A DNA stretch of 10,696 nt from IMG/VR virus record IMGVR_UViG_2534681978_000009, positions 1 through 10,696 of that record. One strand, given 5' to 3'. Source of the stretch: a virus. Taxonomy: Duplodnaviria > Heunggongvirae > Uroviricota > Caudoviricetes. Shown in pieces: positions 5,367-6,310 of the stretch; the first letter of the stretch is position 1, and each line of letters opens with the position of its first letter. The position numbers and the translations under genes are program-made. Below the pieces are notes generated by a model that saw only the letters and a program-made list of their open reading frames with translations, was not told the origin of the DNA and made no database searches.

Positions 5367-6310
5367 GCAATCCCCCTGTCTGCAAACTTCCCTTCCCGAA
5401 CTCCCGTTAACGAATCTTCCCTCAGCAGGTAATCAAAATCGGCCGTCCAGCCAGTGTCGTTGTCTCCGAAGTAAAACGGCTTGGCCTGATGTACAAACGC
5501 CCTGACATACGCTCTGAAACCGTCCACGTTTGGCGTTTTCAGTTGCGGGATGATTTTCTTCAGGCGGCGTTTGCGTTTCTCGTTGACCGCAACAGCGTGT
5601 GGCAGTCTGTCACCGACTTCGGTGTTGTAGGCGTTCAGGAAGGATTCGTAGTCGATTCGTTCTGCCTTGCGACGTTCAGGTTTAACCTGCCCATCGCCGC
5701 CCCCATTGGGGGGTAGGGGGGTATTATTTATATTCTTGTTAATACCTTCTTGTTCATGATGTGCGGTTGTTTGTGCGGCTTCATGTGCGCTTTCATGTGC
5801 GGCATGTACTCTGAAAGCCGCGCCATTGCTGGCTTCGTCATGTGCGGCATCATGTGCGGTTGTTTGTGCGGCTTCATGTGCGGGTGAATTGTCCATTTTT
5901 TGAGCGTATTCATGGTAATTTGTGATGGTGATCACACGACCTTTTTGCTTCTCTCCATCAATGGAGATCATCCCCTCTTTCACAAAAACCTGAAGCATCC
6001 GCTCAACCTGATCACGGCTTGCTGGCTTGCCATGTCTGTCGCATAACTGAAGACCTAAATCAGCTGCTGTCACAACCAGTTGACCGGGTTGCAGATGCCA
6101 TTCATGACCTTTGAAATTCGCTTTGTATGGCTTTCTGGCGGCATTCAGGAGAAGGTTTTCCCACAGGGTGCGAAGATAAACATCTTTCGCCCATGACTGT
6201 TTCAGAATGCTCCGGTACAACGGAATGTAACCAGTTTTCTGGTTCTCCATCCTGTTGCTCCTGCGCTCGTGTGCGGCGCTGAAATCGTAGATTTTTGCTG
6301 TATTGCTCAT
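5363..6310 (-). CDS. O: Replication initiator, O-like (lambda O-type start, iteron-containing)
   Basis: 315 aa. First residues MSNTAKI and upstream context resemble lambda O, then diverge. Iteron array and AT-rich tract lie inside the gene as in ori-lambda. Directly followed by the helicase gene. Confidence 0.8.
5722..5885. repeat. Candidate replication origin: iteron array plus adjacent AT-rich tract inside the O gene
   Basis: About eight copies of (C)ATGTGCGG at roughly 11-12 bp spacing. A 31-bp direct repeat ATGTGCGGTTGTTTGTGCGGCTTCATGTGCG occurs at 5759-5789 and 5852-5882. AT-rich segment TATTATTTATATTCTTGTTAATA at 5722-5750, downstream of the iterons in the O reading direction, as in lambda ori. 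Confidence 0.6.

Follow-up and report, generated by a model that had tools for sequence, protein, structure and literature searches.

A putative two-block iteron origin inside the O-type initiator gene of a CUS-3-like lambdoid prophage

Each iteron of the phage lambda replication origin has an internal dyad symmetry and binds a dimer of the initiator O, and to the right of the AT-rich tract lies an inverted repeat that spans the EcoRI site. The lambda iterons are four in number, evenly spaced and 18 base pairs (bp) long (PMC3349717). Iterons with an AT-rich tract midway along the O gene are the rule in lambdoid phages (PMC7466680, PMC3349717), and in lambda, P22 and L alike, according to the phage L genome paper, the gene contains repeats peculiar to that phage (PMC8022706). 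Here we describe the corresponding region of a 10,696-nucleotide (nt) stretch of DNA from a virus of the class Caudoviricetes (IMG/VR record IMGVR_UViG_2534681978_000009, positions 1–10,696). This whole stretch, called the window below, covers a lambdoid prophage's early-right region in reverse orientation. Its O-type replication initiator gene (5363–6310, minus strand, 315 residues) contains an array of direct repeats that, on comparison with related sequences, is very probably the theta-replication origin of this CUS-3-like prophage, placed inside its own initiator gene. It is an ordinary, well-known kind of element with a repeat sequence of its own. An initial annotation, made from the letters of this DNA, had proposed an iteron-type origin here, and the comparisons reported below argue in its favor.

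Eight direct repeats of 12 bp, each made up of (C/G)CGCACA plus five further nucleotides, lie within 5755–5883 on the coding (minus) strand. Block 1 (5836–5883) holds four units with the core CCGCACA, which read CCGCACATGAAG, CCGCACAAACAA, CCGCACATGATG and CCGCACATGACG from 5883 to 5836. Block 2 (5755–5802) holds four more, one of them with the core GCGCACA, which read CCGCACATGAAA, GCGCACATGAAG, CCGCACAAACAA and CCGCACATCATG from 5802 to 5755, the last continuing into a conserved CATGAACAAGAA junction. Inside a block the units repeat every 12 bp exactly, not every ~11–12 bp as first estimated, and the start of the last unit of block 1 is 45 bp from the start of the first unit of block 2, leaving a 33-nt spacer (AAGCCAGCAATGGCGCGGCTTTCAGAGTACATG; 5803–5835, minus strand). 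All units have a single orientation and lack an internal inverted repeat. The early count of roughly eight copies inside the O gene holds: CCGCACA occurs eight times in the window against 1.44 expected, a number reached by 0 of 200 shuffles, and seven of these copies are in the array, whose remaining unit is the GCGCACA variant. The 31-bp direct repeat described at the same time is exact (5759 and 5852, offset 93 bp, in frame).

Adjoining unit 8, downstream in the direction of O transcription, is an AT-rich tract (5722–5754) that is the presumed DNA-unwinding element. Its A+T content is 82% (83% over 5722–5750, the span originally marked as AT-rich), it holds the AT-richest 30-mer of the O gene, and it is the least stable stretch of that gene; only one of the window's 10,666 31-mers is less stable than that starting at 5721. 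Next comes the C/G block noticed in the initial annotation, with a short inverted repeat (5700–5721; CCCCC-CAAT-GGGGG on the coding strand), present as CCCCCATTGGGGGGTAGGGGGG on the plus strand and as CCCCCCTACCCCCCAATGGGGG when read from 5721 to 5700.

Like ori-lambda, the window has its putative origin in the middle of the initiator gene, with direct repeats followed by an AT-rich tract along the direction of O transcription (PMC3349717, PMC7466680). The lambda-like layout suggested at the outset can be followed through the whole gene, in the order N-terminal DNA-binding domain, direct repeats, AT-rich tract, inverted repeat and C-terminal partner domain. The repeats are of another kind, however: evenly spaced 18-bp iterons in lambda, eight asymmetric 12-bp units in two blocks around a 33-bp spacer here, and the window does not match strict lambda-type iterons (~18–19 bp, internal dyad, even spacing). 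The source of the helicase also differs, lambda relying on P and the host DnaB, whereas the window encodes a DnaB-type helicase of the phage's own. P22 gene 18 and HK97 O are followed, as in the window, by a gene for a 458-residue DnaB-type helicase. HK97 DNA matches window positions 5690–5737 (the C/G block and part of the AT tract) and its O C-terminal domain is near-identical, whereas its repeats are ACATTAGCTAA-like and its N-terminal domain is unlike that of the window. Plasmid iteron origins of the pSC101, R6K, P1 and pPS10 type also have same-orientation repeats, a presumed winged-helix initiator that reads them and an adjacent AT-rich tract; their iterons lie outside the rep gene, are ~17–22 bp long and usually come with DnaA boxes. 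The window does not match that type, with its array inside the gene, its 12-bp units and no DnaA box nearby. The repeats and the N-terminal domain also differ from those of P22, whose repeats are given as "four ~20 bp repeats" (PMC8022706).

The putative origin of Salmonella phage L / ST64T (GenBank MW013503, rep_origin 31650–31726; PMC8022706), itself only predicted, has the same bipartite layout as the window. Phage L has three plus three units around the spacer ACCAGTAATGACGCGGC and the window four plus four around the homologous GCCAGCAATGGCGCGGC; an AT tract and an inverted repeat follow, the latter of 10 bp in phage L and with a stem of 5–6 bp in the window. The L initiator gp18 is a colinear, distant homologue of the window O (22% identity, pairwise E = 6e-11) and its gene is followed by one for a DnaB-like helicase, though its C-terminal domain is of a different type. 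The phage L unit, TGTCCAACGGA, has an 11-bp period, with single units out of frame and the frame restored by each three-unit block.

The O gene is 98.5% identical to that of phage CUS-3, 97.8–98.6% identical to those of JEP4, Kapi1, HF4s, Gally and 48 Shiga toxin 2a (Stx2a)-converting phages, all of which carry the two-block allele, and 100% identical to a stretch of the Escherichia coli NCCP15648 chromosome. The gene is called O or replication protein in the CUS-3, JEP4, Kapi1 and Gally records, and the CUS-3 record annotates O and P (the helicase) without annotating an origin; in the records inspected the origin of this allele is unannotated. Searches of the open-access literature turned up no description of the allele's repeats (subscription papers on CUS-3, HK620, Sf6 and P22 gene 18 were outside our reach).

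Relatives came from a tblastn search with the N-terminal domain of O (N-domain), which reached phages of Klebsiella (80%), Yersinia (74%), Salmonella (52%) and Enterobacter (47%), and from a scan of one genome per species that gave 36 prophage loci across Enterobacterales. The same-class comparison set comprises 31 O genes, including those of Escherichia, Klebsiella, Yersinia, Xenorhabdus, Proteus, Brenneria, Sodalis, Enterobacter and others. The same core, three plus three or four plus four units and a 33-nt spacer are found in 31 of 31, and throughout the related O genes block 2 joins the AT tract directly through the conserved junction. No homologue examined was without repeats, the minimum being one block of three units; their absence from functional homologues had been named at the outset as evidence that would count against an origin.

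The array codes in frame for a low-complexity His/Ala peptide, and translation confirms the repeated His/Ala-rich units noticed earlier. The repeats might on this basis be a coding tandem repeat only, that is, a flexible linker produced by slippage or unequal recombination, with no cis-acting part for the DNA to play and the origin elsewhere. An in-frame array with a low-complexity product, lying in a segment predicted to be disordered and varying naturally in copy number as many coding repeats do, is what such a linker would look like. The codons, however, tell against it. In all 196 units, position 2, which is the third base of a codon, is C, although the amino acid of that codon may be P, A, T, S or G; at position 5, an Ala wobble base, only A or G occurs; and position 8 is T in 174 of the 196. 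The Ala codons of the arrays are GCA (139), GCG (41) and GCC (33), with GCT at 0 of 213; outside the arrays the same genes use GCC (251), GCT (244), GCA (177) and GCG (153). For His, CAT:CAC is 199:3 in arrays versus 78:65 outside them. The control is given by conserved N-domain residues with four-fold-degenerate codons, where the commonest third base has a mean frequency of 0.57. Because third positions in the array are fixed by comparison, constraint acts on the DNA beyond what the peptide needs. Four further observations are at odds with a linker: the synonymous A/G difference at position 5 is uniform within genomes and tracks residues of the helix-turn-helix (see below), other N-domain classes have unrelated peptides with the same DNA layout, the 11-bp units of phage L are read in three frames, and the array always abuts an AT tract. 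We consider a purely coding repeat highly improbable. The initial annotation had the repeat constrained at both levels, DNA and protein. The DNA half stands; the protein half lacks support, as the segment is predicted to be disordered, residues at the variable codons change freely and other repeat classes code for unrelated peptides, and there is little to support constraint on the peptide beyond keeping the frame open.

The spacer between the blocks is invariant in length, and its third codon positions are 90–97% conserved. Conservation of the left 22 nt extends from one iteron class to another: this core, CCAG(Y)AATG(R)CGCGGC, is also present in O genes with unrelated repeats (loci L004, L005, L037 and L041, and phage L). 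It may be a DNA site or may reflect the peptide SNGAA. Outside the window, spacer core sites were located at ~2955–2980 of L004 and 31684–31716 of L043. The near-palindrome reported between the two long repeats (5787–5823, GCGCTTTCA...TGAAAGCCGCGC) exists, but we attribute it to chance: 7 nt pair exactly, its fold is no better than those of shuffled sequences (z = −0.31), and it is absent from homologues.

The fifth base of the repeat core is A in 21 genomes and G in 10, and it is uniform in 29 of the 31 arrays, the other two having one odd unit. Exactly two N-domain columns split the A and G types without overlap: residue 82 is A or P in the first and S in the second, and residue 100 is D and H, respectively. 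On a neighbor-joining tree made with columns 82 and 100 excluded, at least three changes of type are needed. In the structure model described below, these residues lie at the starts of the two helices of a predicted helix-turn-helix, and an Asp facing adenine and a His facing guanine would be chemically plausible. N-domains at 43–52% identity have other 12-bp units in the same three-plus-three layout: CACCCGATGAAC-like units in Salmonella phage S.Inf 5-2, GGCGTCGAAGGT-like units in Enterobacter phage ENT1, and GAGGTAACAAAG-like units in a Pseudescherichia genome (L038) and a Pantoea genome (L041). The repeats thus appear to be specific to their cognate initiator N-domain and inherited together with it. 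The different initiator specificity that had been read from the unfamiliar iteron sequence finds support in this co-inheritance, in the co-variation of core base and helix-turn-helix residues, and in the different repeats of distant N-domains.

The same results bear on whether a protein other than O, either a host factor or another regulator of the phage, might bind the repeats. The spacer core, conserved independently of repeat class, could be the site of such a second factor. The repeats themselves, however, change class with the class of the O N-domain, one of their core bases tracks two O residues, and they travel with the N-domain across right halves and hosts. DnaA boxes (TTWTNCACA, at most one mismatch) are absent from 5700–5913, that is, in and beside the array, and their total in the window is below chance (17 versus 22 expected). 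We therefore give a non-O reader of the repeats very little credence.

The right halves just mentioned are of several kinds. The N-domain and its repeats are found joined to right halves of the lambda, P22/HK97, L and other types, and the junction lies in the AT tract. Other O alleles cease to be homologous at ~5737–5739, inside the tract, and among 5,426 complete E. coli genomes 272 carry the full-length allele while 441 more share only window positions 5363–5739, which places a mosaic joint there. HK97 and several Salmonella phages have the reverse combination, with a different N-domain and different repeats but the window's C/G block, C-terminal domain and helicase. In Klebsiella and Yersinia phages (L002 3523–4260 and L003 3484–4173) the N-domain and array stand before a lambda-type right half and a lambda-P-like loader gene; this right half includes sequence around lambda's EcoRI site. 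With a lambda-P-like loader there and a DnaB-type helicase in the window, one origin specificity would seem to be served by two helicase-delivery systems. The O alleles show the division classic for lambdoid initiators, one half being origin-specific and the other partner-specific. In the epsilon34 genome paper, the origin-binding part of lambda O is cited as its N-terminal 162 residues (PMC2629481).

Almost all right-half types have an inverted repeat after the AT tract, and several pairs of its stem variants are compensatory (CCCAC/GTGGG versus CCCGC/GCGGG; ATTAAATAC/GTATTTAAT versus ATTAGATAC/GTATCTAAT; ATCTAATAAT/ATTATTAGAT versus ATTTAATAAT/ATTATTAAAT). Stems of at least 6 bp follow the tract in 60% of genes versus 9% of background windows, a difference to which no clean probability can be attached, the genes being related. 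The inverted repeat of the C/G block appears to be the local form of this family-wide element.

The number of blocks varies naturally. The two-block form is the majority (clusters of 409, 294 and 1,458 members), but among proteins otherwise near-identical to the window's O there are also single-block forms of three, four or five units (for example P0045, P0048 and P0042), three-block forms (P0001 and P0014) and a four-block form (P0008). These alleles differ by 93-bp steps (31 residues) or by expanded blocks. The one three-block allele checked at the DNA level, on the sequence type 131 (ST131) chromosome MB1159 (L044 598–814), has 13 units as 4 + 5 + 4 with the same 12-bp and 45-bp spacing. 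Since the array lies in a predicted disordered linker and its unit length is a multiple of three, it may expand and contract by unequal recombination with the protein unbroken. All 55 phage-collection records with the allele are of the two-block form, and no single-block allele was found among them. Pairing of adjacent units into 24-bp iterons is ruled out, blocks of three and five units being common. The lambda-type iterons of Shiga toxin (Stx) phages offer a parallel: the origins of 933W and P27 have six iterons, iteron number varies among close relatives and lengthens O, and two extra iterons are needed for effective replication (PMC7466680). Those iterons and their O/P genes have been studied by electrophoretic mobility shift assays and footprinting, whereas the window allele is known from sequence. 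Because extra iterons matter there, one may speculate that block number influences replication in the 48 Stx2a phages that carry the window allele, and hence toxin gene dosage after induction.

Variable numbers of sites also raise the question of whether the repeats serve mainly for control, as O-binding sites that titrate the initiator, pair origins (handcuffing) or autoregulate O. Two iterons are enough for unwinding of lambda in vitro (PMC7466680) and the window has more sites than that, block number ranges from one to four, and there is an extra core copy near the 5' end of O. Block 2, however, is always joined to the AT tract via the conserved junction, and no separate candidate origin, in the form of a second repeat cluster beside an AT tract, was seen in the O gene. 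The extra copy (CCGCACACGA; 6267–6276, minus strand, O codons 12–15, AAHE) lies ~390 bp upstream of the array. We considered it as an autoregulatory site and rejected it: other repeat classes retain the peptide SAAHERR without the DNA core, and the copy is not conserved as DNA in relatives. It is probably not a binding site. Moreover, a control role would add to origin function and not replace it. Repeats devoted chiefly to control are very unlikely.

The protein encoded around the array is an O-type initiator by its open reading frame and translation, by PHROG 345 ("replication initiation O-like") and by Pfam PF04492 (Phage_rep_O), which matches residues 20–132 with 56.8 bits (gathering cut-off 28.7; E = 3.3e-15). 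Its start, M(S/T)NTAKI (here MSNTAKI...), matches that of lambda O. An AlphaFold2 model was built from a 13-sequence alignment (mean predicted local distance difference test score, pLDDT, 59.5). The N-domain (residues 20–139; 5894–6253, minus strand), the presumed iteron reader whose residues 82 and 100 co-vary with core base 5, has a pLDDT of 63–84 over residues 31–140 in 10-residue blocks, except for block 131–140 (60). In the model it has helices at 82–88 and 99–111 followed by a beta hairpin at 115–129, an order predicted to form a winged helix-turn-helix. Foldseek found nothing in the PDB at E ≤ 0.001, the weak matches (E ≥ 0.04) being mostly, though not all, winged-helix regulators, and a sequence search of solved structures gave none at E ≤ 1. 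Residues 140–216 have a pLDDT below 50 and are predicted to be a disordered linker. The array, AT tract and C/G block together correspond to residues 143–205, between the N-domain and the C-terminal domain (C-domain), so the entire cis-acting region codes for predicted disordered linker. The C-domain (residues 217–315; 5363–5662, minus strand) is helical (residues 221–305), with a pLDDT of ~78–89 over 221–270 and below 50 at 278–288 and 310–315. It is common to HK97/P22-type initiators, near-identical in HK97 O and Salmonella phage S.Inf 5-2, and always paired with a DnaB-type helicase gene.

We picture initiation as follows. The winged-helix N-domain of O would bind the eight 12-bp repeats in a head-to-tail series, each unit taking one domain and each of the two blocks four; the resulting nucleoprotein complex would destabilize the adjacent 33-bp AT-rich tract; and the C-domain would bring in the phage's own DnaB-type helicase, encoded directly downstream and presumed to be the partner recruited to the origin. 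This scheme of helicase recruitment is the P22 gene 18/gene 12 arrangement and not that of lambda P with host DnaB.

Several points weigh against the origin assignment or this picture of it. Searches of the open-access literature turned up no binding, footprint or replication experiment on the allele. The genomes compared are related, so that their unit counts are not independent events, and concerted evolution through gene conversion could contribute to the uniformity of units within a genome. Because the units are short, asymmetric and in one orientation, the binding mode of lambda is not simply transferable to them. The structure model is of moderate quality (mean pLDDT 59.5) and its fold matches are not significant. 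Taken alone, the C/G-block hairpin of the window (stem 5–6 bp) is no better than shuffled sequences (z = −0.27 and −0.83); we retain it as an element because of the family-wide pattern.

A more tentative, and on balance doubtful, possibility is that the initiator superfamily to which the window allele, phage L and four or more further repeat classes belong has an origin architecture distinct from lambda's. Such an architecture may consist of asymmetric 11–12-bp sites bound by single winged-helix domains head to tail in two equal blocks, around a spacer of fixed length with a 22-bp core conserved as DNA irrespective of repeat specificity. In that case the spacer core would serve as a second cis element, one that does not depend on specificity, such as a host-factor site or an organizing center of the initiation complex, and residue 100 (D or H) would read core base 5 (A or G).

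For the probable origin itself, the analysis is useful mainly for annotation, since its exact place can now be entered for a common prophage replication module. The comparative set also predicts a specificity switch of one base and two residues (A/G at core base 5 with A82S and D100H). Useful comparative detail comes from the arrangement of 12-bp units in two parts, the conservation of the spacer, the co-variation of base and residues and the polymorphism in block number. Phage origins have been reported as targets of defense systems such as Lamassu (PMC12663957).

The genes of the window run in the order Q, ninH, rusA, an antirepressor-like gene, nin genes, the DnaB-type helicase, the O-type initiator, cII, cro and cI. 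The helicase gene (3990–5366, minus strand, 458 residues) is identified by Pfam DnaB_C (261.5 bits), the DnaB N-terminal domain (49.7 bits) and PHROG 19, and overlaps the end of O by 4 nt. An Rfam scan of the window gave no family at gathering score. A mechanically called 166-residue open reading frame at 6357–6857 (minus strand) overlaps cII, with its match to a phage family (phrog_2519, function unknown) confined to the final 74 residues; the true gene between cII and O is probably short and sits where P22 has orf48 and HK97 has gp53. On the plus strand, a 340-residue open reading frame at 9342–10364 that has no Pfam match contains several short tandem repeats (15-nt and 6-nt units) at 9864–10025.

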